NCBI GenBank assembly: GCA_016709725.1
Contig: JADJMG010000008.1
Coordinates: 67,189 to 131,188, forward strand
DNA from: Bacteroidota bacterium
GTDB taxonomy: Bacteria; Bacteroidota; Bacteroidia; AKYH767-A; OLB10
Reading direction: 5' to 3'
Length of the DNA: 64,000 nt
Shown here: piece after piece, positions 3,001 to 57,573 of the stretch
How the letters are laid out: each line of letters opens with the position of its first letter
Numbering within the stretch: position 1 is the first letter of the stretch
Position numbers and translations under genes: made by a program
The notes under the pieces: generated by a model
What the model saw: the letters and a program-made list of their open reading frames with translations, nothing else
What the model was told of the DNA's origin: nothing
The model's database searches: none

Positions 3001-6000
3001 GTGGTTGTGTTTTCGGTGTAAATCCCCAAATGGTATTACTAGCAGCGCTGGTGTCGCCATCAATTGGCAATCCATTTTCATACTCCAGTTTACCATCTTT
3101 CAACACATCCTCTGAAATATTTCCTAAGTTGAAATATAGATCTCCTCCACCTTGATTCACATTTTGAGTATTGCTATTAAAAGGATCCATCATCCAGAAT
3201 TGAATGAATTCAATATTGGCTACGTCAAAATCAGTAGTTTCAATTCTACGCATGATACCACCCCATCGTGAACCTGGATTATTCAATTTACCATCCGAGT
3301 TAACCACGGCACTTAATGCAGTGGGCACTACATCATAATTATAAGGTCCACGTTCCTCGGAAAATAACTGATATTGAATACAGGAAGTACAACGGTTTGT
3401 CCTTGCTGTGCTTCACGATTTGGAAATATTTCTTTCTCGGGAACTTGACGCACTAAATGATTGGAGATGGCATTATCGTCGATATTCGGAGGCGTAACAC
3501 CAGAAAGATCACGATAAAATAATGGATCGATGATATACCAAGAAAACTTTGCACGGTTCTTTCCGTATTGTAAACTCACGCTATCTGCCTCCGGTAATAA
3601 TCGAGTTGGTGCCGAAGCGAGAATCCAAGAACCCACATTTCGTAAATCAATCGTACTTTGACTTCCCTCGAAATCGTCGATATAAGCCGTACCATTTTTT
3701 CCAATGGCCTTATTATTTCCAGGTACTAAGTTTGCAAATTCTCCGGCAACCGTGATGGTGGAAACTTCTTTGGTAGATATTCCAGGAAGCTTGTCAATCA
3801 TTCGTGTTAACCAACGTGATTCTGTTCGCCAAGTTCCATCCACACCCCAAATAGTATTAGCGATGGGCTCATCACCAATATTTACTTTCTGAGTGATGGG
3901 ACGTTCGTTCAATCGTAAAATAGTACCTCCTAATACAAGATCCTTATTCACGGTATAATCGAAACGTGAACCGAACAACGTTTTGGATTGAATACTAAAA
4001 AGTGAATTACTCTCTAAAGAAATATTGATTGCCGTTCCTGAATTTAAAATACTTTGATTAATGATTTTTACACGACCTAAATTATAATCGACTGTATAAT
4101 CTACATTCTCCGTTAAGGGAGCACCACCTGCAGTCACCTTCACCGATCCTTGCGGAATGTTGATAGCATTTAATGGAATGTCAGATCCATATTTACTGAT
4201 GTAACTTCCTTTTAAACTAAATTTATTTTTAGATGCTTGCTGAATCGCGAAAATCCGTGTTGAATCATACAATGCCTCATATACATACGGCGCTGCTGCA
4301 GCTGAATCATTAAACTTACTTTCCAAATACGATCCAAAAGGCTCGCGAACCGGGAAAATAATTCGACCATTATTACTGTTGATCGTAACACCTTCAATGA
4401 AATCAAACTCTCCGTCGGGACGCGGATCGTTGTTACTATTTAATTTATCTAAATTGAAAAGTCGGTTTAACGGCTTGGCGTAAACGTTAGTTTGTGCAGG
4501 AGTTGTTGGAATGTAGTTAAGACGGTTACCAATGGTATCCACATAATACAATACATCCAATTTAAAATCTTTTCTATCCAATTGAAATCCGCCCAACGCA
4601 TACACGTTCTTCATCATCAAATCCCAGGTTGGTAACTTGGTATTGTTTACACGACCTTTCAAAAGTTTCATGAATAATACTTTCGGGGGTTCAATACCGG
4701 TGTTGGTTAAATCACCCACACGATAGACTTTTCCGCCAATGGTATATTCATAAGCCACTGCCAATACTTCATTCCCATTGAGTGCTTGATTCAATGAGAT
4801 ATAACCCAAACGCGGATTGAAGGTATACTCCGTAGTAGCTAATCGACGTGCGTTTTGAACTACCTCATAATCACGAGAAGGACTTAATTGCGTAATATTT
4901 GCAATCGAATTTTGCACCAACGTAACGTCTCTCAAATCTGGATTCAGATTGAATTGATCATACAAACTATTGGCTGAGTCTTGTGGAAAAGGGACCGTGA
5001 CATTAAAAGAATTTGTGATATATCCTGTGGGCTCAAAATAATTTCTTTCTCCCAAATCCATCGCCGCCAAAACTGTACGGGTATTGTCAGTACTATTATT
5101 CCGGTTGGTTACCCATACTTCCATTCGAGTAATGGACACTAATGAATTGATGAACGGAAGATCGGCTAATGAAACATCATACTGATCTTTGAAATATTGT
5201 CCGACGAAATAATGTTTGTTTACCTCATACTGATCGCAGGGAATATCAAACTTCGTGGTAGTTGCACCGCCTTTCACTTCGATGTTGGAAGCTTGTCCGC
5301 GTTGTTGTGAAAGCAAAGTAGTTACCATCAGTCGACCAAACTTCAACTGTGTTTTCAATCCAAACAAACTCTGACTTCCTTGAATCAACTGCGAATTGAG
5401 TGGTAAGCTTACGTTACCCGCTTCAATCTTTTGAATAATCTCATCTTCATAGCCAGTGTACTCCAATTTCATTTGATTCTCAAAATCAAAACTGGCTTGT
5501 GTATTATAATTGGTGGTAATCTTCAATTTCTCTCCGATATTACCAATCACATTCATTTGAATCTGCTCGCGAAAATCGAAAGTGGTGATACGACGTTGAC
5601 GTTCTGGTAAAGTTGGATTATCATAACGCGAAATATTTAATCCAAAAGCTAAAGAAGCGGATCCTTGCGGACGAATGTCGATGGTGTTCCCTCCAAAAAT
5701 TCTGTTGAACGCTTCACCCCCAACGTAAATTCGAGGAGAACCACTTTTACGTGCAGCAGCATTCTCTGCATTTGCTTTTTGTTTCCAATAATTTTTTGTG
5801 CTCTTTTCAAACTCCGACTCTTTAAACTCCTCGAAGGTCATGTAGCTTGGACTACGGAAAAAGTTACTCCCAATATTTTCATTGATATCGTACTGACGCT
5901 CTTCTGGATTATACTCAATGGTTGTTTGAATATTACTTGGATTGCCCATATAAAGTGGACTACTTGGAGCATTGCTGTTATACGGATCGGCATAACGATC

Positions 6001-10709: not shown

Positions 10710-10781
10710 CCTAATTGACTTTAATTATTTAGTTTCATTTCAATAGCAAACTCAAATTACTTATGAAATTTTCTTTCGCGT

Positions 10782-31110: not shown

Positions 31111-32998
31111 TTATTCATCGTAGTTAACCAAATTCAAACTGGTTAAAATGACAATCAATGTGACCCCCACATCAGCAGCAATAGCGAAAACTAAATTGCT
31201 GTAACCAGCAAAAGCAAGGATTATGAAAATAAGTTTAACTGCTATTGCTCCAATGGTGTTGAATTTTATTCTAATTAAAGTTTTTCGACTTAACCGAATT
31301 AAAAAAGGAATGAGGGATAGTTTATCATTCATCAATGCAATGTTTGCCGTTTCTATTGCGGTGTCACTACCGGCTGCACCCATTGCAATGCCAACGGTGC
31401 TTTGTGCCAATGCTGGAGCATCATTAATTCCATCGCCTACCATGGCAACCTTGCCATATTGCTGCAAAAGTTCTTTGATTTTTTCGGCTTTGTTTTCAGG
31501 GAGCATGTTGCCGAATATTTTTTTAATGCCAACTTGCTTTGCTACATAGATTGCCGCTTTTTCACTGTCGCCTGTAAGCATTACGGGTTCAATGTTGAGG
31601 GATTCCAAATCTTTTAACGCAGCTTCACTATCAGGTTTAATTTCATCCATCAAACCTATGACTCCTGCTACACCTTCGCCGAAACTAACTACTACACTTG
31701 TTTTACCTTGCGATGAAAGTTGCTCCACAATTTTCTCTGCTTCTTTATCTATGTGTTGATGTTCTTTTATAAAATCAAGTTTACCAACATAAATTGTTTC
31801 ATCCTCACACACCAAACATTTTGCTGTAGCCCCTTTCCCCATTATACTTTTGAAACCCTCAGTTTGGTGTGGTTCAAATCCTTCTTTCTTACTAGCATCA
31901 ACGATTGCCTGAGCTAGCGGATGTTCGGAAAATATCTCTGCTCCTGCAGTGCAGGCCAAAAGTTCTTCACGGCTTGTTCCGTTCAAAGGAAAAATATCTG
32001 AGACAATAGGGTTTCCAAATGTGATTGTTCGTGTTTTGTCTAATGCAATTGCTTTGATGTTTGCTAATGCTTCCAAATATTTACCACCTTTCACCAATGC
32101 ACCTTTAGCTGAAGCGTTACCAATAGCTGCGTAGATAGCCACTGGAGTAGAGATGACCAAGGCACAAGGACAAGCGATTACTAAAAAGTGTTATAGCTTG
32201 TTGCAGCCATTGATCGAAATCAAGTTTCAAAATAAAAACCGGCACTACAAATAGAAGTAAAGAAAGAACTAACATTGCAGGAGTATAATACTTTGCAAAC
32301 TGCTGAATGAATTTTTGCGTTTCGCTTTTGTTTGCTTGTGCTTCAAATGTGAGCCGAACAATTTTTGAAAAAGTGGTATCAACCGAAAGTTTGGTTGTTT
32401 CTATTTCAATGAAACCATTTTTATTTAGTGTTCCCGCAAAAAGATTATCACCAATTTGCTTGTCTTTTGGAATGGGTTCACCTGTGATGGCAGCTTCATC
32501 TACGACGGTTTCGCCTGAAATTATTTTGCCGTCAAGTGGTATCATTTCACCTGGTTTTACCTGAATGATTGTTCCTACAATAATTTTATCAATGGCAATA
32601 TTATCATTTTGTGATTTTACAAAAGCGGTTTTCGGAGCTTTGCTCACTAAATCATCTAAAGCGGCTTTGCTATTGGCAATACCAATATCTTCCAAGCGTT
32701 CACCTAATACATATAAAACAACCAATACTGCTGCTTCAGGAAATTCACTTAAATAGAAGGCGCCGATAACAGCAATAAGCATCAGCAAATTGATGTTGCT
32801 GAATTGGAGTTTGAAAATTGCTTTTACACCATTCCACAAAACATTATAACCTATGATTAAAATGAAAGTGGCATAAATGAAAGGTGCATACGGCATAGGA
32901 ATGTCTATTCCTACAATGGAAAGAATTTCCAATGAAACAACTATCGCGATTGCAAATAGAAGGAAGAGGAATTTTTTATCTTTGATTGGTAGTTTCAT
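31111..32998 (-). CDS. Heavy-metal-translocating P1B-type ATPase (CPC type, no N-terminal HMA domain), split by a frameshift at ~32150 (A5/T5 run)
   Basis: ITGEP, CPC, DKTRT (should be DKTGT-like), GDGINDAPAL and MVGDG motifs. Fragment 1 ends ...QQAITLF. Fragment 2 begins (A)LVISTPVAIYAAIG. Confidence 0.8.
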
Positions 32999-45217: not shown

Positions 45218-48200
45218 TTGAATGCCAACTCGTTATACGACTTGAAAATTCAGATAGAATCTAAGAAATTCTACTTAACTTTGAATACCATCTATGAAAA
45301 CACTCCTCACTATTTTTGTTGTATTTTTTTAAGTTGCTGGAATTTGCAACTTAAAGCGCAAGGTTTCAAAACTGAAATTTTAGGAAATGTTGGGCGTTCT
45401 AATTGCATATTAATAGATGCGGACACGGCATGGCTTGCCATAGAAAGTGGGATACTCAAAGTAAATATGGTAAACCATAATGTAAAATGGTATAACTCTA
45501 CAAATTCAAATACTAAATTCAGATCCAATAATTTTATTAAAATCTTAAAAGATAAAAAGGGACATCTTTGGTTTATTAACGCTCAAGGTCAAGTATTGAA
45601 ATATAAAGATCAAAATTTCATTTCTAAAAATAAAGGTTCTTTAAGATTCAATGTTACAAATATAAACGACGTCTTTTTTTGAGATGGATCAAAATGGAAA
45701 AATTTATTTTTTAAACACAATGAAAAGCATGCATTTGTTCCCGACTCATTAAAAATTTTAGTATGGGATACCAACAACATATCTAAATATAATTCGCCTG
45801 AAATGTTTTATAAAGCAAGTTATACAGCTGACAGTTCAGGAATATTTATCTTATCTGATAGTTCAATGTTCGTAGAATTAAGCATTTTGAGAATGGAATA
45901 TTTGATACATCATTTCCCGTAATTCGGAAATCCACAATTTCCTTACTTAGAGATGAAAGTGACTTGTTTTTAGTTGACACTATTTTTCATTACTTCAACA
46001 CACTGACTTATTCGAGGTTCAACTGTATATAATATACGCTCTTTTTCGTTATAGTAAAAGTGGCGCATTAATAGATTCAATAACGATTCCTGCCCAATTG
46101 CTATTCTAACGTCCAACGTTTAATCCAAAACCAATGAAATTTATTTCTTTTCTGCCAACAACAATCATTACTATATTAACTCTTCGGGAAATTTATTACC
46201 AACTCCCCAATCTATAGTACATTAACAGATGTAAATACAGCTCATTTTGATACTTTGGGTAATCTTTTTGTACTTCAAGGGAATAAAAAGCCATATTTAT
46301 CGAAAATCGATACAAATGGTATTGAAAGTCGATTTAATTTACCCTATCCAATAAATCACACGGTTGGGTTTGGTCCAAATGTGCAAGCTATTTACGACTC
46401 AAGCTTATTAGTATCTTATCCCAACGGTTCTGGAGCTTTGATTTTTGATGGAATTTCTGCTACAGATTTGCCTCCCGTACCAAAAAATTTTATTGTAGAT
46501 TCTACAAATACCATCTATTTCTTAAGAAATGATTCGATTATAAAATATAAAAATGGAACTATCCTTTTAAAAACTAAGCTCCTTATAATAGTGTTAACCA
46601 AATACAATTTCTTTATGAAGGAGGGACTCATTATATTTTTTCTATGCAAATAAAATTTACGCCCATAATATTCATAATGGCATCATTTCACTCATTGGTA
46701 ATCTAGGCAATGGGTATCTAACTTTAAGTAAGAAACGAGAATTATTTTTTAGAGTATCTTCTTCTAAATTGTACTGGACTAGAGATAGCAACTATGTATG
46801 GTATGCATTGGACTCTACTATTACTGGCATTCTATACAATGAATTAAAAGCAATCCAAATCCAACTTCATTTAAATGACGGAAGTACATGGTTTCACAGT
46901 GGTGACCATATTATGAAAAGGGAACAAAATGGAGTTTGGTTGATTTATAACTATTCATTTGAAAATATTTCTCCAATTACCCCCTATTTATATGGTGGAT
47001 TTTATGACGATTTCCGAAAGTGCTATTGGTTAATTTCAAATGGGTTTATTTTAAAAGTTGATTCAATTGGAATTGCCAAATATAATTGGGAAAATTCGGA
47101 TTTATTTTTTGACAACCTTGCAGGCAGGTTTAAAATATCAAATGATAATAAAATTTGGTTTGTAGGATATTATGGAGGTTATACAAAAATTACTTTTGAC
47201 TCGATTAACTCTAAAACCAATTATCAAAAACTTCAAGTTTCAGGAAATGTATACCATGATATTAATGCCAATGCAACAATTGACAGTTTAGATACTGCAT
47301 TACCCTATATTAAACTAAAGAATGAAAAAGGATACCTATCATATTCTAATCTATTAGGTAAATATCATTTTTTAGAACCCCAAGGTCCACATGTAATTCA
47401 ACCTGTTCTTAATTCATTTCTTGCGCTTTCGTGCGATTCATCTTCATATACATTTAACATAAATACCATCCCAATTGACTCGCTTGATTTTGCTTTAAAA
47501 TCGATTGCAGATACTCTATTGTATGCTTCTTCCTTTTCTTCAAGTCAAGCAAGATGTTCTGCTACGAGTTCTGCTCATATTGTCGTAAGAAATAATGGCA
47601 ATGCGAAAATCAGTGTATTATTTTCATTCACCCCTGACATTCAAAGTGGCATTTTAAGTTTTAGTCATTCTCCAGATTCCACTAATGGCAATACATTGTT
47701 TTGGAAGATAGACTCATTAAAATTACTAGAATCCAAAAGCATTAATATTTCTTATACAGTTCCATCTGTCTTATTCAATGAAATAAAATCAGTCGTTTCT
47801 TTTTCTGTTTATGATTCAGTAAATATTGTTCATTACAAAACAGACACCTTAACGCAAACTATCATCTGCTCTTTTGATCCAAATGAAAACAAGTATCTCC
47901 AATTGGAATGGGTTCTGCTCATTACACACTTTTTTCAGATACACTCATTTACACATTACTCTTTCAAAATACCGGAAATGACACCGCTTTTTCAGTATTG
48001 CTAATTGATACCCTTTCCCCCCATTTAGATATTGAAAGTTTCAACTTACTTTCCATGAGTCATAATGGAGAGGTAAGCATTGATGAAAATAGAGTTTTAC
48101 GTGCAAAGTTTAATGAAATAAACTTACTTTGGGAAAGCGTTAATTCTTTGGCAAGTCAAGGTTACATGCAATTTTCAATTTTACCAAAACAAAGTCTGCC

Positions 48201-48573
48201 TGAATTTACATTGGTTAAAAACAGTGCACTTATTGTATTTGATAGCAATCCATACATCTTAACCAATGAAGTATTCAACACCTTCGTTACAACATATCCA
48301 ACTACAGCATTAAATCAGCTTCAGAAAGACGCTAGTAAAATATCGATATATCCCAATCCATCTAAAAATTATTTCAGCATCTCATTTGATCAAACCGTGA
48401 ATTTAGAATACGAGGTAACATTGATTGACATCTCTGGAAAAATTTTACAAAGCTGGAAATCGAACGAACAAAACCCCACTTTCTCCTTAGAGGCAATAAA
48501 TGCAGGTTTTTACTTGATTCAAGTAACCAATAAATTTGACTTTAAAGCCATTGCCAAGTTTATCAAACAATAA
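45218..48573 (+). pseudogene. Large T9SS cargo gene in decay. 45218-46768 is heavily stop-ridden (Reg_prop-like beta-propeller fragments). 46769-48573 is nearly intact (Cna-B/DUF11-like repeats plus type-A CTD) with one frameshift at ~47900.
   Basis: Consecutive ORF fragments in changing frames. The C-terminus reads CSFDPNENK..LLFQNTGNDTAFSVLLIDTL...IYPNPSKNYFSISFDQ...GFYLIQVTNK. Confidence 0.5.
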
Positions 48574-48696: not shown

Positions 48697-49875
48697 ATGT
48701 CAAAAGATCGTTTCCAGGGCCATGATTATTACCTCATGGATGAGTTACTTACCGAAGAACATCGCCTTGTGCGCGACTCTGTTCGTGAATGGGTAAAACG
48801 CGATGTGTCGCCTATCATTGAAGATTATGCTCAGCGTGCTGAGTTTCCTACACAAATTATAAAAGGATTGGCGGGCATCGGTGCCTTTGGTCCGTACATC
48901 CCTGCAGAATACGGCGGTGGCGGTATGGATCAAATCTCCTACGGACTCATCATGCAAGAAATTGAGCGTGGTGATTCTGGTGTGAGATCTACTGCCTCTG
49001 TACAAAGTTCACTCGTGATGTATCCCATCTACACATATGGATCAGAAGAGCAGCGTAAAAAATATTTACCGAAGCTTGCTACTGGAGAGATGATGGGTTG
49101 CTTTGGATTAACAGAACCTAATCATGGATCCAATCCATCGGGCATGTTAACCAATATTAAAGATGCAGGTGATCATTTTATATTGAATGGTGCAAAGATG
49201 TGGATCAGCAATGCTCCATTCGCCGACATCGCTGTAGTGTGGGGAAAAGATGAAGAAGGTGTCATTCGCGGAATGGTAGTTGAGCGTGGCATGGAAGGAT
49301 TTTCTACTCCTGAAACGCATAATAAATGGTCGTTGCGTGCAAGTGCTACCGGCGAATTAGTTTTCGATAATGTAAAAGTTCCAAAAGCAAATATTTTTCC
49401 AAATGTAAAAGGACTAAAAGGTCCGTTGGGATGTTTAAATTCTGCTCGTTATGGTATTGCATGGGGTGCGATTGGTGCTGCGATGGATTTTTACGATACT
49501 GCACTTCGTTATTCTCAAGAGCGTATTCAATTTGGAAAACCCATAGGTGCATTTCAGTTACAACAGAAAAAATTAGCCGAGATGATTACCGAAATCACCA
49601 AAGCACAATTGTTGACATGGAGATTAGGAGTTTTGAAAAATGAGAACCGCGCAACTCCTGGACAAATCAGCATGGCCAAGCGAAACAATGTAAACATGGC
49701 ATTACAAATTGCACGTGAAGCAAGACAAATGTTAGGCAGCATGGGCATCAGCGGTGAATATCCAATTATGCGTCACATGATGAATTTAGAATCAGTAATT
49801 ACCTATGAAGGAACACATGATATCCATTTATTAATTACGGGTATGGATGTAACTGGATTCAATGCTTTCAATTAA
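48697..49875 (+). CDS. gcdH: Acyl-CoA dehydrogenase (glutaryl-CoA dehydrogenase-like)
   Basis: 392 aa with ACAD motifs and GcdH-like sequence throughout. Confidence 0.8.
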   Translation: MSKDRFQGHDYYLMDELLTEEHRLVRDSVREWVKRDVSPIIEDYAQRAEFPTQIIKGLAGIGAFGPYIPAEYGGGGMDQISYGLIMQEIERGDSGVRSTASVQSSLVMYPIYTYGSEEQRKKYLPKLATGEMMGCFGLTEPNHGSNPSGMLTNIKDAGDHFILNGAKMWISNAPFADIAVVWGKDEEGVIRGMVVERGMEGFSTPETHNKWSLRASATGELVFDNVKVPKANIFPNVKGLKGPLGCLNSARYGIAWGAIGAAMDFYDTALRYSQERIQFGKPIGAFQLQQKKLAEMITEITKAQLLTWRLGVLKNENRATPGQISMAKRNNVNMALQIAREARQMLGSMGISGEYPIMRHMMNLESVITYEGTHDIHLLITGMDVTGFNAFN

Positions 49876-50019
49876 TTTTTTTCCTGCTGATGGTAGGAAA
49901 GTAAAATAAAATTCAAATAATAATAGGAACCTCGGATGTAAAAATTCGGGGTTTCTTTTTTTCTTTCGTACAAGCTACAAGCTACAAGCTGTCACGCTAC
50001 AAAATTTAAATAATAATAA

Positions 50020-50373
50020 TTACAAAGAATAATTTTCTTCCCAGGCGTTATAAAGTTCGTTCAGGTAAAGATTTTCTTTGGGGGTGATGTTTTTATCGGC
50101 AATAACCAGTTTTACGGCAAAATCAATAAAGTGGGAACGTTCATCAGCGGTTGAGTCCATATAAAAATCGTTCATGGCATTATTAAAATGGATGGGATAA
50201 TCGGATGGATCCATTTGGCTTAAAACCTCCATTTGGTCGTCCAAATTCATTTTTGGAGGAAAATTTTCAATAATATAATCGCGAATTACCTGATCTTCTT
50301 TTCCATTAAAATGCTCATCTACAGCGGATAAGATCATTAACATATGGTAGCCAGCAATAGCTTTACTTTTCAT
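50020..50373 (-). CDS. Hypothetical protein (TerB-like fold possible)
   Basis: 117-aa ORF in coding context. Confidence 0.3.
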   Translation of the reverse strand: MKSKAIAGYHMLMILSAVDEHFNGKEDQVIRDYIIENFPPKMNLDDQMEVLSQMDPSDYPIHFNNAMNDFYMDSTADERSHFIDFAVKLVIADKNITPKENLYLNELYNAWEENYSL

Positions 50374-50575
50374 GACATAAAATAATTAGAGTAGCTAAAG
50401 TACGACAACTAAATTGGTATTCCTCTAAAAATCATCAATTTCTGTCAATTATTAGGTTAAAGTGCACAAATTTGATCCTCAAGTGCAACCAAAAGGACTT
50501 TACGGCGTTAAGCAGAAAGAATTAAAATCATAGGGTTGGAAAAACATAATTCACTATGTTTGCACCCGCTCAAAT

Positions 50576-50646
50576 GGTCGCGTGGCCGAGCGGTTAGGCA
50601 GAGGTCTGCAAAACCTTGTACAGCAGTTCGAATCTGCTCGCGACCT
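50576..50646 (+). tRNA. tRNA-Cys (anticodon GCA), 71 nt. CCA is not encoded.
   Basis: Folded manually. Acceptor stem ggtcgcg/cgcgacc, 3-bp D-stem, anticodon stem gaggt/acctt with loop cuGCAaa, T-arm agcag-TTCGAAT-ctgct, discriminator T. Confidence 0.85.
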
Positions 50647-50654
50647 CAACGAAA

Positions 50655-50695
50655 AGCCCCTTATTCAACGAAAGTTGAATCGGGGGTTTTTCTTT
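50655..50695 (+). terminator. tRNA terminator: cccc-ttATTCAAC-gaaa-GTTGAAT-cggggg plus T-run
   Basis: Direct reading. Confidence 0.6.
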
Positions 50696-50842
50696 TTGTG
50701 ACCATGCAAGTTTACTTGCAAATGGGCAACAAAAAGAAAAATCCACGGCCAAGCCAAAGGCTTGGGTGAGGGGGATTTGTTGGTGGAGCCCCTTGATCGC
50801 GAGGCCTGCTTGCAGGACTCGCACTCTGCTCGCGACCTCAAC
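50692..50842 (+). repeat. Module A: ~150-bp structured repeat ending in an 18-bp copy of the tRNA-Cys 3' end (tctgctcgcgacctcaac, 50825-50842)
   Basis: Direct comparison with the tRNA 3' end at 50633-50650. Internal hairpins gcaagt-tt-acttgc, ccaagcc-aaa-ggcttgg and gcgaggcctgc/gcaggactcgc. Confidence 0.8.
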
Positions 50843-50879
50843 AAAAACGTCCCTGTCCCGCTCCGCGGATGGGGATTTT

Positions 50880-51072
50880 TGTTTTTGTGACCATGCAAGT
50901 TTACTTGCAAATGGGCAACAAAGCCCCAGCGGGACCAGTTGCACTTGCAAATGGGCAACAAAAAGAAAAATCCATGGCCAAGCCAAAAGCTTGGGTGAGG
51001 GGTTTTTGTTGGTGGAGCCCCCTTGATCGCGAGGCCTGCTTGCAGGACTCGCACTCTGCTCGCGACCTCAAC
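50880..51072 (+). repeat. Module B: second copy, with an internal 35-bp duplication, ending in core copy 51055-51072
   Basis: Near-identical to module A. Confidence 0.8.
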
Positions 51073-51358
51073 AATAATACTCTTTTCAACTTCGTTTTAT
51101 GGGGGCAATTCTTTTCTGTTAATCTAAGTTTATCGATGTCATAGTATACATAACTTACAAATAGACGGCAAAAAGAAAAACCCGTATACAAGCACTCCTA
51201 AAAAATCAATTACAAAACAATAGATTTTCCTTACAACATATTGTGCACTAATTTCTGAAATTTAATATATAAGTAACCATCACATTAAATTGTTTCAATA
51301 AACCTATAGTTAGAATTACTTACTGATTGCATTAATTATTCAACTAAAAAAAACAACC

Positions 51359-52230
51359 ATGAAGAAACAAATTTCAAAACTGATTATTCTAACACTGATC
51401 TTAGGATTTGGATCTTGTAAAAAAGACGATTCCAGTAGCAGCCCAACTACTACTGCAAGTGTAATGAGTGCGAAAATAGACGGAGTGAGTTGGACTTCTC
51501 TAAGTAATCAGACAACAAGCAGTATCTTGAATCATGCTTCCACTTGCACCGGAATTGCGGCAGATTCATCAAGAATTAATTTCAACATACTCCAAAATGT
51601 AGCCCTAAATGGAACTTATAATATTGGATTTACAAGTGGAAATGTGGCTACTTATGCTACAACTTCTACATCTGTAGTTTGGCTTTCTAATGGAGACCCA
51701 ACTTGCACTGGAACATTAAAAGTTACGGGTTTAAACCCAACTACAAAACGCATTTCAGGAACTTTCTCTTTCAAAGGATATCGGGCTTCAGACAATACCT
51801 ATAAAAATATTACTACAGGCGTATTTACAAATGTACCTTATCAAACAGGAATTTCAAACGGAAGCAACACATTCAATGTAAAAATTGACAATGTAAATTG
51901 GGTCCCTACTTTTATTACGGGATATTCAAGTATTGGCTTTATAAATGTTGAAGCCTCAGGTTTAGGATTAGACAAATCAGTTCTTTTATTTTTCCAGATA
52001 CTATTATGGCTGGTACTTACTCGCTTGGCGGACCTAATTCTTTTAATGCGTACTATTCACCTGACACAATTTCTACTTTTATTGCTACAAATGGAACACT
52101 TAGTATTAGTTCACATAATACAACAACGAAAAAGATAATTGGGACATTTAATTTTAATGCAGTCGATGCTATCGGAGGAGTCACAACTCATTCAATTACC
52201 AATGGTGCTTTCAATATAATTTACAATTAG
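51359..52230 (+). CDS. Lipoprotein with two repeats of a beta-rich domain, split by a frameshift at ~51990 (T-run)
   Basis: Lipobox LGFGSC. The two halves are similar (...RISGTFSFKGY... / ...IIGTFNFNAVD...). ORFs 51359..52138 and 52006..52230 overlap out of frame. Confidence 0.5.
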
Positions 52231-52251
52231 CGCCATAAAATTAATTACGCT

Positions 52252-52292
52252 TTGAGCTTCAATTACCCCCCCATTCAAATAATGAATCGGGG
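52252..52292 (+). terminator. Terminator hairpin C7-ATTCA-aataa-TGAAT-c-G8, related in design to the tRNA terminator at 50655
   Basis: Direct reading. Confidence 0.55.
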
Positions 52293-52334
52293 GGGGTTAA
52301 TTTTGAGTATATGAAAGTTTATCCACCAAACAGG

Positions 52335-52469
52335 TATTTTTGCTTGTAAATGGGCGAACAGTAAAAAGCATAGGCCAATCCTTATGGCATAGTTGAGGGG
52401 GATTGGTTGGTGGAGCCCCTTGAGTGCGAGGCCTGCAAGCAGGCCTCGCACTCTGCTCGCGACCTCAAC
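52335..52469 (+). repeat. Module C: third, more diverged copy with a perfect 14-bp palindrome gagtgcgaggcctgc/gcaggcctcgcactc, ending in core copy 52452-52469
   Basis: Direct comparison. Confidence 0.75.
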
Positions 52470-52980
52470 ATTATTTCGCTGCATCCGTGGGCAAAACCTT
52501 TTTTTAAGAATTAATACACTTAAATATCAAATGCAATTGATTTTAAATTTTGAGCAACCAACATAAGATCTCGCAAATCCAATCATTTTATATGCTTCTC
52601 AATAATTTTTTCATTTCAATTTTAATCAAACATTTTTTTAATCAATCGAAAATTCCAAAAGAAAAAACGTATTCCGTCTAATCGATTGCAAAATTGGAAT
52701 TATCGCTTCGCAATTCTATTTAAAAAGAATGAAATCTCAACCGAGCATGATTTCTTCCATTATATCAAAAGCAATTTCAAATTCATTTATAAAATCACAA
52801 ATTGACTTTCAGCATAAGTTAAAGTACTAAGTAACATCTTCTTCTTTAGTGTAGAAGATTAATTGGAGACCGTCTAACCTTTTAAAATACCCTTGATAAA
52901 ATTGCAGAATGTGGGAATAATGTAAATAATAGAATTTATTGTGTAACGGATCATCATCCTTTTAGCATCAACTTTGCAAA

Positions 52981-53598
52981 ATGAAATATCCTCTACTCAT
53001 GAATAAACTAAAATTAATTACAAGTTGCTTCGTACTTATTGTTTCCATAACGATAAGTAATTCTATATCCTGTTTTGCACAAGAAACCACACAAAACAAC
53101 TCTTATGGCAAAACGCTAAACCTAGGTCTTGGAATTGGGGGCTATGCAGGCTACTATGGTTATGCGGGGAGAACATTACCTGTGTTACATTTGAACTATG
53201 AGCTTGATGTTGCAAAAGATTTTACCCTAGCTCCATTTATTAGCTATTATTCTTTCAGCAGAAGTTATTACTACGGAAATAATTCGCTCAATCACCCATT
53301 TAAAAATTATACGTATCGCGAAGTAGTAGTTCCGATTGGAGTAAAAGGCACCTACTATTTCGATGATATCTTAAATGCAAATTCGAAATGGGATTTTTAT
53401 TTAGCCAGTTCGCTTGGATTTGCGATCGTCTCACGTTCATGGGACAATGATTATTATGGAGACAAAAATTATTTCCGTCATGGAAATTCTTTATTTCTTG
53501 ACTTTCACATCGGCACGGAGTATCATCTATCAAAACGCGTCGGACTATTTCTTGATCTCTCAACCGGAGTATCGACACTTGGGCTAGCCATACATTAA
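52981..53598 (+). CDS. Outer-membrane beta-barrel (porin-family) protein
   Basis: Signal peptide, Gly/Tyr-rich strands. Confidence 0.45.
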   Translation: MKYPLLMNKLKLITSCFVLIVSITISNSISCFAQETTQNNSYGKTLNLGLGIGGYAGYYGYAGRTLPVLHLNYELDVAKDFTLAPFISYYSFSRSYYYGNNSLNHPFKNYTYREVVVPIGVKGTYYFDDILNANSKWDFYLASSLGFAIVSRSWDNDYYGDKNYFRHGNSLFLDFHIGTEYHLSKRVGLFLDLSTGVSTLGLAIH

Positions 53599-56153: not shown

Positions 56154-57573
56154 GTGACTTAGCCTGAAATAGGTTGACTTTTTAATTAGATTGTATTTAA
56201 TGTTGACTTTTTTCTTTTTTGCTTCTTTTTTCTTTTTTGTTAGCAACTGGCATTTCTGTTAATAATGGATGTGACCATTTATACACAGTCATTTGCGGAC
56301 GATCTTTTTCATCTAGACTGCTAATATACTGTTCGTATTCAACAGGGGTCCTATTACCTAAACTTGAATGTGGTCGTTCATTGTTATAGAGCCATAATAT
56401 TTGCATTATTTTCCTCTGAATATTTTCTTCAGTAATCATCTCTGGATTCAAATATTCATACTTTATTGTTCCCTGTACTCGTTCAGCATATGCATTTTCT
56501 TGAGGAAGTTTACACATGCTAGGAGTCATTTCTAATTCTTTTATTAGTGCTATTTGAAGTTGACTTATATATTGTGTTCCTCTGTCTGAGTGGAAAATAC
56601 ATCCTTTAAATGTTAATCCATTACGAGCTTTTATTGCCTTTCTCAATGCTACTACATTCTGTTCTGCCCGCAAAGTCTTAGATACATGTAATGCAAGTAA
56701 TCTACGTGAATAGACGTCGATAATACATACACCATAATAAGATTTACCTGCAACATCGAAGTAAAAAAATATCTGATTGAAGTGCTTGATTCAATCCATT
56801 AAATACTTTTCCTTCTAAGTGATTATCGAATATTGCCAACTTAGTTGCCCAGGTAGTTCTATGCTTATTCCTTACAATTTGAAGTTTAAAGCCATTGGAA
56901 AATCCAATTTGCTCGAAGTTATCTCTGCCAACTTGCATTGTGTTTTTAACTCTAGAATACATCTTACGACAACTCATTCGCTTGTGATTTTTACGAATTT
57001 TGTTACATACTTTAATGACTTCTTTTGATACACTAGAAATATATTCTTGCCGCAATCTATATTTATAAATTGCTTGTTTACTTATCCCAGCTGCAATATA
57101 CAAATCCTTCATTTTGTAGTGGTGGGTGGTTCGTTTTTCGACTCGGAATCGCTCGAGGGCTCCTTTGATAAATTTTTTTTTAAATCTGTCTTAAATTCCT
57201 CGTTAGCTAAATCAATGATCTTAGAAAGTAAATCTACTTCCATTTGTTTACGACCCAAGGCCGCCTCCAAGTCCTTTATGCGACGTTCTAGTTCTTGGCT
57301 GCGATAAGCTTCGCTTTTATCTTCTACTACCATAACCCTATTTTTTATCAAATGTCGGGAATATCGGTAAATCCAGTTGTAAATGGTTTGAATGCATACT
57401 CCTAGCTCATGACTGGCTTGTATTACAGTGCATTTGCCTTGCTCCACATCCTTCACAACAGAGCGTTGAACGGCTTCACTGAAGACTCGTCGCTGCTCTA
57501 AATACTTTGTTTTTTTTACTTTTTTCGTTTCCATTTTAGGTTGATTTTTTGGTCAACCTATTTCAGTCACGCA
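56153..57573 (-). mobile_element. IS3-family insertion sequence (~1.42 kb). OrfA is 57109..57534. OrfB is 56197..57112, in the -1 frame relative to orfA and additionally broken at a T7/A7 run (56720-56730). Imperfect terminal inverted repeats TGTGACTtagcCTGAAATAGGTTGAC / GGTCAACCTATTTCAGTCACGCA.
   Basis: OrfA has an HTH plus leucine zipper. OrfB has an rve DDE core (HSDRGTQY...ERPHSSL). The ATG of orfB overlaps the orfA stop in the -1 frame (ACAAAATGAAGG). Terminal IRs identified by eye. Confidence 0.8.

Follow-up and report, generated by a model that had tools for sequence, protein, structure and literature searches.

A ladder of hairpin-rich repeat units ending in copies of the tRNA-Cys 3' end behind a Bacteroidota tRNA-Cys gene

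We analyzed a 64,000-nucleotide (nt) stretch of Bacteroidota DNA (the window; assembly GCA_016709725.1, contig JADJMG010000008.1, positions 67,189 to 131,188 of the forward strand), in which a tRNA-Cys gene is followed by a ladder of hairpin-rich repeat units, each ending in an exact copy of the last nucleotides of that gene. The ladder is real and conserved across lineages, and neither chance repetition nor a single scar would account for it. We favor, tentatively, the explanation that its units are cargo-poor insertion modules, or collapsed remnants, that site-specific recombination stacked at an integration hotspot at the tRNA-Cys gene and unequal crossing-over then remodeled. The ladder is a variation on the known tRNA-end repeat ladders and attachment-site remnants, not a new category.

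The motif shared by the tRNA gene and the units, an 18-nt core (TCTGCTCGCGACCTCAAC), occurs exactly four times, with starts at 50633, 50825, 51055 and 52452, and is absent from other sites even when two mismatches are allowed (chance expectation none; 0 shuffles matching). The tRNA contributes 14 of the 18 nt, namely the last T-loop base, the 3' strand of the T stem, the 3' strand of the acceptor stem and the discriminator, and the final 4 nt (CAAC) are trailer lying outside the tRNA. A preliminary description of this DNA, made from the letters alone, had taken the whole core to be tRNA and had it recur three more times; the recurrence stands, and the tRNA share has to be cut to 14 nt. Upstream of the tRNA gene, at 50555-50562, the motif positions contain a -7 box of the Bacteroidetes type, TATGTTTG.

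A repeat finder and alignment indicate that the modules preceding the three displaced cores are homologous. Since the GC-rich hairpin and T-run after each core also belong to the repeat, the full unit spans core to core. It is made up, in order, of an intrinsic terminator (T), a long hairpin with a T-run in its 5' arm and an A-run in its 3' arm (hairpin 1, HP1), a small hairpin (HP2), a hairpin of a G-run and a C-run (HP3), a T-arm-like quasi-palindrome (R1) and the core; terminator, HP1 and HP2 are referred to as the left part. The features of the locus are as follows.

50576-50646/7, plus strand: tRNA-Cys(GCA) gene, found by ARAGORN and scoring 60.6 bits with the Rfam tRNA model
50633-50650, plus strand: core copy 1, 14 nt of tRNA and the CAAC trailer
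50651-50842, plus strand: unit A, with terminator T_A 50656-50686, HP1 50681-50747, HP2 50747-50765, HP3 50768-50792, R1 50795-50826 and core copy 2
50825-50842, plus strand: core copy 2, the 3' end of unit A
50843-51072, plus strand: unit B, with terminator T_B 50849-50876 (unlike T_A), HP2 50976-50994, HP3 50997-51022, R1 51025-51056 and core copy 3
51055-51072, plus strand: core copy 3, the 3' end of unit B
51073-51195, plus strand: decayed left-part remnant (terminator and HP1), the fourth left part in the window, directly 3' of core copy 3, with a folding z of -0.8
51359-52230, plus strand: DUF6252 lipoprotein gene (PF19765), between core copies 3 and 4
52261-52469, plus strand: unit C, with terminator T_C 52265-52296, HP1c 52297-52370, HP2c 52372-52392, HP3 52395-52419, palindrome 52422-52453 and core copy 4
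52452-52469, plus strand: core copy 4, the 3' end of unit C

Units A and B are 93-96% similar, and unit C reaches 79-89% over its right 85 nt, which agrees with the earlier claim of one module before every displaced core, near-identical in A and B and diverged in C. The hairpins listed at that time all exist, but the repeat is larger, as it includes the terminator and the long HP1; the two terminators of C-run/ATTCAA/G-run design, correctly noted as alike, are homologous to each other and are themselves components of the repeat. Unit A scores 131.6 bits with the covariance model. What had been called a 35-bp internal duplication in unit B is actually a 40-nt insertion (50923-50962), composed of a 20-nt duplication and 20 nt of filler, which interrupts HP1. 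In unit C the terminator doubles as that of the lipoprotein gene, and HP1c is decayed and carries an apical insertion. Its palindrome is indeed perfect, with arms of 15 nt rather than the 14 bp first given and with a loop inverted relative to A (TT to AA). Compared with shuffles, single-strand folding gives z = -8.8 for the left part of A, z = -1.2 for R1 of A and z = -4.1 for R1 of C. Also missing from the preliminary description were the decayed remnant at 51073-51195, the left part that follows the lipoprotein gene, the local tandem duplication and the Escherichia coli analogue, all of which are treated here. Several further interpretations of the units were tried and set aside. Reading the whole right part as a tRNA pseudogene fails because the Rfam tRNA model has no match in the units at E <= 10, and its resemblance to a D arm or anticodon arm was judged too weak; readings as a primer-binding-site-like element, a guide RNA (omega-RNA or CRISPR RNA) or a group II intron were dropped, the defining motifs or partner genes being absent.

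Homologous units lie behind tRNA-Cys in eight other metagenome lineages (loci L011, L019, L022/L028, L029, L030, L037 and L039), whereas a more distant lineage (L032-34) has just a plain terminator there. Syntenic loci were gathered through homologues of the TerB-like protein encoded nearby; L011 is the single true relative obtained by scanning genome and metagenome contigs with right-part DNA patterns, the other matches being due to chance. The number and composition of units vary in every lineage. In L019, unit A, its core truncated, is succeeded by a unit bearing a different right part, R2 (GCAGATCAC...GGTAATCTGCTCGC), and this by an R1 in decay. In L037 a full, R2-bearing unit with an 18/18 core precedes the same terminator, after which the assembly has a gap. 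In L022 four tandem 61-nt sub-units bearing truncated cores ignore the unit boundaries. L030 and L039 mix R1 and R2, and every displaced core in them carries the common variant ctgcGAgcgac. L011 has a third type of right part, in which 15 further tRNA nt are retained and an 18-nt hairpin sits in the T loop, and L029 has a deletion running from HP2 into the lipoprotein gene. Left and right parts are combined as mosaics across lineages (R1, R2 and the L011 type), and all three right-part types can be read as a tRNA T arm in which a foreign hairpin replaces the T loop. A search of the 64-kb window and about 0.2 Mb of related DNA by BLAST and with the covariance model found no unit other than those behind tRNA-Cys and the neighboring lipoprotein gene, so the modules are specific to this locus and not dispersed to unrelated sites. 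Contigs L024, L027, L031, L038 and L050-L055 break inside or at tRNA-Cys, and a run of N lies within the L037 array; as assemblies break systematically at this locus, unit counts from metagenome-assembled genomes are lower bounds.

The lipoprotein gene was correctly described as the sole coding cargo between the cores, but it is not intact. It is frameshifted near 51975-51990, in a T-run, where frame 0 fits the L019 protein to residue 176 and frame 2 fits it from residue 171. In L019 a stop (TAA) occupies codon 4 of the orthologue, and in L029 the orthologue lacks its 5' part; decay of the gene appears to be in progress in these two lineages and in the window. In all three of these loci the left part (T-HP1-HP2) also occurs 3' of the gene.

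The hairpins are clearly maintained. When ten left parts are aligned with a covariance model, 94.6% of cells are paired and 20 of the 43 pairs have changed on both sides, across all four helices; none of 500 shuffles does as well, and controls slid along the sequence are only 35-58% paired. Having been fitted to the structure, the alignment is biased toward pairing. An independent MAFFT/RNAalifold run gives double changes in 8 of 25 pairs. The arms of HP1 are 80-90% complementary inside each lineage and only 65-75% identical between lineages, and an AA bulge is conserved. Eight R2 copies from five lineages share an invariant base, CAGATCACC/GGTAATCTG with a C-A mismatch, but differ freely at the apex; R1 retains its flanks, CCTTGATCGC and GCACTCTGC, and the hairpin between them is swapped wholesale, even between the close lineages L030 and L039. 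This bears out the earlier suggestion that structure is under selection, as far as covariation is concerned, although the one case on which that suggestion was built is ambiguous. Template-switch correction of quasi-palindromes is an established mechanism, and the perfection of palindrome C, with three changes and the inverted loop, is equally expected from it without selection, so it need not be compensatory. Nothing indicates that the hairpins act as RNA.

The left part behaves like horizontally acquired DNA. Between the window and L029, the fourfold degenerate sites of two flanking genes are 0.36-0.37 identical and hence saturated, whereas identity is 0.58-0.77 over the 200 nt of intergenic DNA that precede the tRNA and 0.89-0.94 (about 0.91) over the 118-nt left part that follows it. 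L019, a close relative (fourfold-site identity 0.70), shows the same left-part identity to the window as L029 does. L022, L030 and L039 are at an equal distance from the window by the dehydrogenase (0.94-0.95 amino-acid identity), and their left part is just 0.67-0.69 identical. Such a jump of similarity at the tRNA 3' end, uneven among equally distant hosts, is, judged by sequence comparison, the pattern that points to acquisition at an attachment site; with eight lineages compared, uneven purifying selection on the left part is a plausible alternative.

Furthermore, the tRNA-Cys 3' end is an integration hotspot in related bacteria. In L021, L023, L026, L036 and L050-L055 a different sequence follows directly after the ...GACCTC of tRNA-Cys, in the order terminator, two to three direct repeats of TGTTTCACCT, a small gene, a tyrosine integrase (PF17293, Arm-DNA-bind_5; PF13102, SAM-like; PF00589, catalytic), and restriction-modification (including types I and II), AbiEii and Fic genes. 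L050 has two adjacent integrase genes; the second of them (position 10772) contains a 12-nt match to the core comparable to one noted below. Occupied and empty alleles are found in close relatives, since L023 carries the island, L022 and L025 do not, and the flanks of L023 and L022 are 97.7% identical, which answers positively the earlier question of an empty site; that two nearly identical strains differ by the island implies that the tRNA-Cys 3' end still serves as an attachment site. The far end of the island was not captured, because the integrase-bearing contigs break inside the tRNA: no second core was found in L021, and 10 kb of flank on the integrase-bearing contigs does not reach it.

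Under the explanation that we favor, the modules would belong, as forms with little or no cargo or as collapsed remains, to an element family that uses site-specific recombination to enter tRNA-Cys at its T-loop/acceptor 3' segment. Each would bring, as its left part, a replacement tRNA 3' end (the core), trailer bases, an intrinsic terminator, HP1 and HP2, and, as its right part, HP3 and a T-arm-like hairpin, abutting the older, displaced tRNA 3' end. The newest module would then adjoin the tRNA gene, every insertion restoring the tRNA and bringing a new terminator, and unequal crossing-over, slippage and deletion would afterward reshape the ladder; recombination between the direct terminator-HP1 repeats at both ends of a cargo-bearing unit, such as the one with the lipoprotein gene, could leave the ~190-bp form, much as solo long terminal repeats arise. 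In general, displaced tRNA 3' ends are regarded as inert traces left by islands. The attL/attR geometry in which incoming DNA restores the tRNA end was reportedly described by Reiter in 1989 and Williams in 2002. Four exact cores, each displaced one with a module before it and a terminator after it, correspond to this geometry, and direct repeats of the tRNA 3' end that bound inserted DNA and leave the tRNA restored are what remnants of tRNA-targeting elements look like; we infer that the core junctions were made by a recombinase. Decay increases from proximal to distal units: A and B are intact, whereas in the third the left part is decayed and the gene broken, which is consistent with serial insertion beside the tRNA gene. 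tRNA fragments that arise from integration have been described elsewhere (PMC9897764). The idea of serial integration scars, already raised in the preliminary description, has thus gained a live integration site and a horizontal-looking left part.

It has not gained an intact element, and several observations weigh against it. Searches of viral, genome, metagenome, phage and plasmid collections yielded no integrase or longer element with the arms of these units: four DNA-pattern scans of viral contigs gave nothing or chance matches in coding sequence, an integrase-protein scan of viral contigs gave no relative, and BLAST of units A and B gave no match in phages and plasmids. As was stated before, no integrase is found in the 64-kb window, either by Pfam on its mid-size open reading frames or by tblastn, for which 30 sequences from the tRNA-Cys-targeting integrase family served as queries and no match over the whole window was better than E = 0.07. 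The search for an integrase using this core did lead to the tyrosine integrase island at the same core in sister strains, but the visible attL arm of that island, with its TGTTTCACCT repeats, is unrelated to the units, and arm-type direct repeats are missing from the units themselves. R1 and core copy 4 of unit C are far better preserved than the rest of that unit, which runs counter to a purely site-specific history. The covariation together with the invariant R2 base suggest ongoing function rather than dead scars. Finally, ordinary tandem amplification, as in the L022 array, the mutated cores of L030 and L039 and the collapsed, N-gapped array of L037, shows that local duplication alone explains some arrays.

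Local tandem duplication is demonstrably active at this locus, and it is tempting to ask whether it could have produced the whole ladder. In a purely local history, an illegitimate duplication would have joined the tRNA 3' end to its own spacer, followed by unequal crossing-over, slippage and template switching, with no site-specific recombination and no function beyond that of a tRNA terminator. The units are all mutually homologous, as this predicts, the 61-nt sub-array of L022 disregards their boundaries, the common non-functional variant of the displaced cores in L030 and L039 implies that these were copied from one another, the tandem array of L037 is collapsed, and the inverted loop of palindrome C fits template switching. 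We nevertheless consider such a history unlikely on the whole, as it leaves unexplained the jump of similarity across the tRNA between distant hosts, the differing terminators of A and B, which are otherwise 95% identical and whose arrangement is common to L011, the fact that three right-part types all break tRNA homology inside the T loop, and the maintained covariation. Far less credible still is a dispersed repeat, of the kind of a miniature inverted-repeat transposable element or a repetitive extragenic palindrome, that came to lie near the tRNA by happenstance: HP1 does resemble two ~28-nt terminal inverted repeats that adjoin almost directly, but BLAST and the covariance model detect no further copy in the window or the ~0.2 Mb of related loci, there are no target-site duplications, and the units stand in a single orientation behind tRNA-Cys.

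The nearest known architecture is that of the 178-bp repeats behind E. coli tyrT, which encode RtT RNA (Rfam RF00391; rttR, tpr), an unexplained curiosity since the 1970s. At the K-12 locus, used as a positive control (L035, 1286709-1287622), four RF00391 units with a 178-nt period and scores of 133-138 bits lie behind tyrT and tyrV, each ending in AATCCTTCCCCCACCACCA, the tRNA-Tyr 3' end from the T loop (AAT) onward. In the outer helix of the RtT model, the 5' segment GGGGAAGG pairs with this tRNA-Tyr 3'-end copy, and the 3' part reads as the T stem of tRNA-Tyr (GAAGG/CCTTC) enclosing a 23-nt loop, which contains a GC hairpin and ends in GTAAT; R2 has the same design. Both systems thus place tandem structured units (~130-230 nt) immediately after a tRNA gene, every unit terminating in a copy of ~18-21 nt of the 3' end of that tRNA from the T loop, and both have a 5' segment that pairs with the 3' strand of the T stem and acceptor stem and a T-arm-like 3' part with an enlarged, hairpin-bearing loop. 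The window units differ in belonging to tRNA-Cys rather than tRNA-Tyr, in their phylum, in the lack of sequence or covariance-model similarity, in having an intrinsic terminator each and, in one case, a gene, and in the evidence of horizontal exchange and of an integration hotspot. Because RF00391 has no match in 49500-53500 even at E <= 10, the window units are an analogue of RtT, not a member. RtT is not known to be made by an integrase, so that its matching architecture is one more point against recombination as the origin of our ladder.

RtT units are transcribed and processed in E. coli, and rtT RNA is released from the tyrT transcript. By analogy, transcription might read through from the tRNA-Cys promoter, with processing at the tRNA-like 3' ends yielding stable RNAs of regulatory or decoy function. 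The parallel with the four-unit tyrT ladder, the expanded, hairpin-bearing T-arm loop ending in GTAAT that both systems resemble, the strong covariation in all four left-part helices and the conserved bulges and mismatches would all be in line with this. However, the GC-rich hairpin and T-run that open every unit should block read-through. A motif scan found no promoter motif inside units A and B (two TAnnTTTG matches to the -7 box lie within the left part of unit C), and Rfam returned only the tRNA in 49500-53500, with no other family matching at E <= 10. The strand asymmetry of folding energy is mixed, L and R1 folding slightly better on the plus strand and R2 consistently on the minus strand. 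In addition, a left part that is 0.91 identical to close and distant hosts alike and 0.67 identical to other distant hosts is better explained by transfer than by uniform constraint. We therefore regard this explanation as rather improbable; the transcribed RNA proposed in the preliminary description is not specifically favored by anything found here. The rttR gene is mentioned in a recent preprint (bioRxiv 10.1101/2024.07.17.603846).

Our favored explanation has a counterpart in the CIMEs (cis-mobilizable elements), decayed integrative elements known from the Streptococcus ICESt1 family and others, which undergo site-specific accretion and can be mobilized in cis by a resident element (PMC5704250). 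Shared features are integrase-free segments between tRNA 3'-end repeats, tandem stacking at a site that integrases use, and the newest segment beside the gene. Whereas CIMEs measure kilobases and hold recognizable remnants of integrative and conjugative or mobilizable elements, the units here are ~190-230 bp, consist entirely of hairpins and are conserved, with covarying pairs, across genera; they also have no known parent element, and the visible arm of the co-resident island is unrelated.

It is also conceivable, if doubtful, that the ~190-bp units are themselves mobile, that is, bare recombination-site cassettes with or without a gene (DUF6252) that are moved by a recombinase in trans and exchanged between genera. 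The locus would then be an integron-like ladder anchored on a tRNA gene and grown by serial insertion at the tRNA-Cys 3' end, and the right-part hairpins, with their conserved base, fixed mismatches, variable apex and replacement of the T loop, would be folded recombination sites. Integron cassette arrays, including clusters of attC sites lacking integron-integrases (CALIN), are likewise integrase-free ladders of small units with or without an open reading frame, newest beside the anchor, and attC sites are likewise terminal imperfect palindromes in which the base is conserved and the apex varies. The conserved ends have the opposite polarity, 5'-GTT...AAC-3' here and RYYYAAC...GTTRRRY in attC, and the anchor is a tRNA 3' end. 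With this reversed polarity, and with neither IntI nor another integrase in the window, we do not assign the units to attC or CALIN and draw the comparison as an analogy only.

The system described here is unrelated to RtT in sequence, parallels it in architecture, occurs in another phylum, and is confined to one tRNA gene beside a live integration site. Given the similar T-loop-expanded mimic in RtT, a general, unrecognized class of tRNA-3'-end-mimicking repeat elements may exist, by analogy between the two. Should the units prove mobile, they would rank with the smallest known site-specific integrative DNAs and would show how tRNA-linked repeat ladders originate, possibly RtT included; if they are transcribed, they would be a new RNA family that mimics a tRNA end. 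The tRNA-Cys locus also accounts for metagenome assembly breaks in these bacteria.

Some further observations concern the tRNA-Cys locus and its relatives. A 14-nt exact match to the tRNA T-loop/core (GAATCTGCTCGCGA) lies at window positions 5559-5572 inside the sprA coding sequence, without the surrounding module; being coding and module-free, it is probably due to chance and was not treated as a related copy. The L022 61-nt sub-unit (L022 9530-9590) starts with GATGGTTTGCCTTGG, the reverse complement of the trailer after the tRNA in L028, CCAAGGCAAACCATC. With flanks 98.9% identical between the two loci, this hints at a small inversion or a template-switch event. Beyond the L030 array (L030 1-5300) lie WYL, ExoX-like, AAA_15/AAA_21 and rve genes, which look like another defense island beside the ladder; no integrase was found in the 6 kb covered.

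Elsewhere in the window, genes split into overlapping open reading frames occur at 31111-32998, 46769-48573 and 56197-57534. They include a P-type ATPase, a type IX secretion substrate (undivided in L019, with 610 aa) and an IS3-type transposase broken into three, and reflect either many pseudogenes or homopolymer assembly errors; in the latter case, the lengths of the C-, G- and T-runs in the units would be uncertain. The genes flanking the ladder are ordinary for Bacteroidota (acyl-CoA dehydrogenase, the TerB-like protein, outer-membrane beta-barrel proteins and type IX secretion substrates), and the fragmented IS3-type transposase lies 4 kb downstream.

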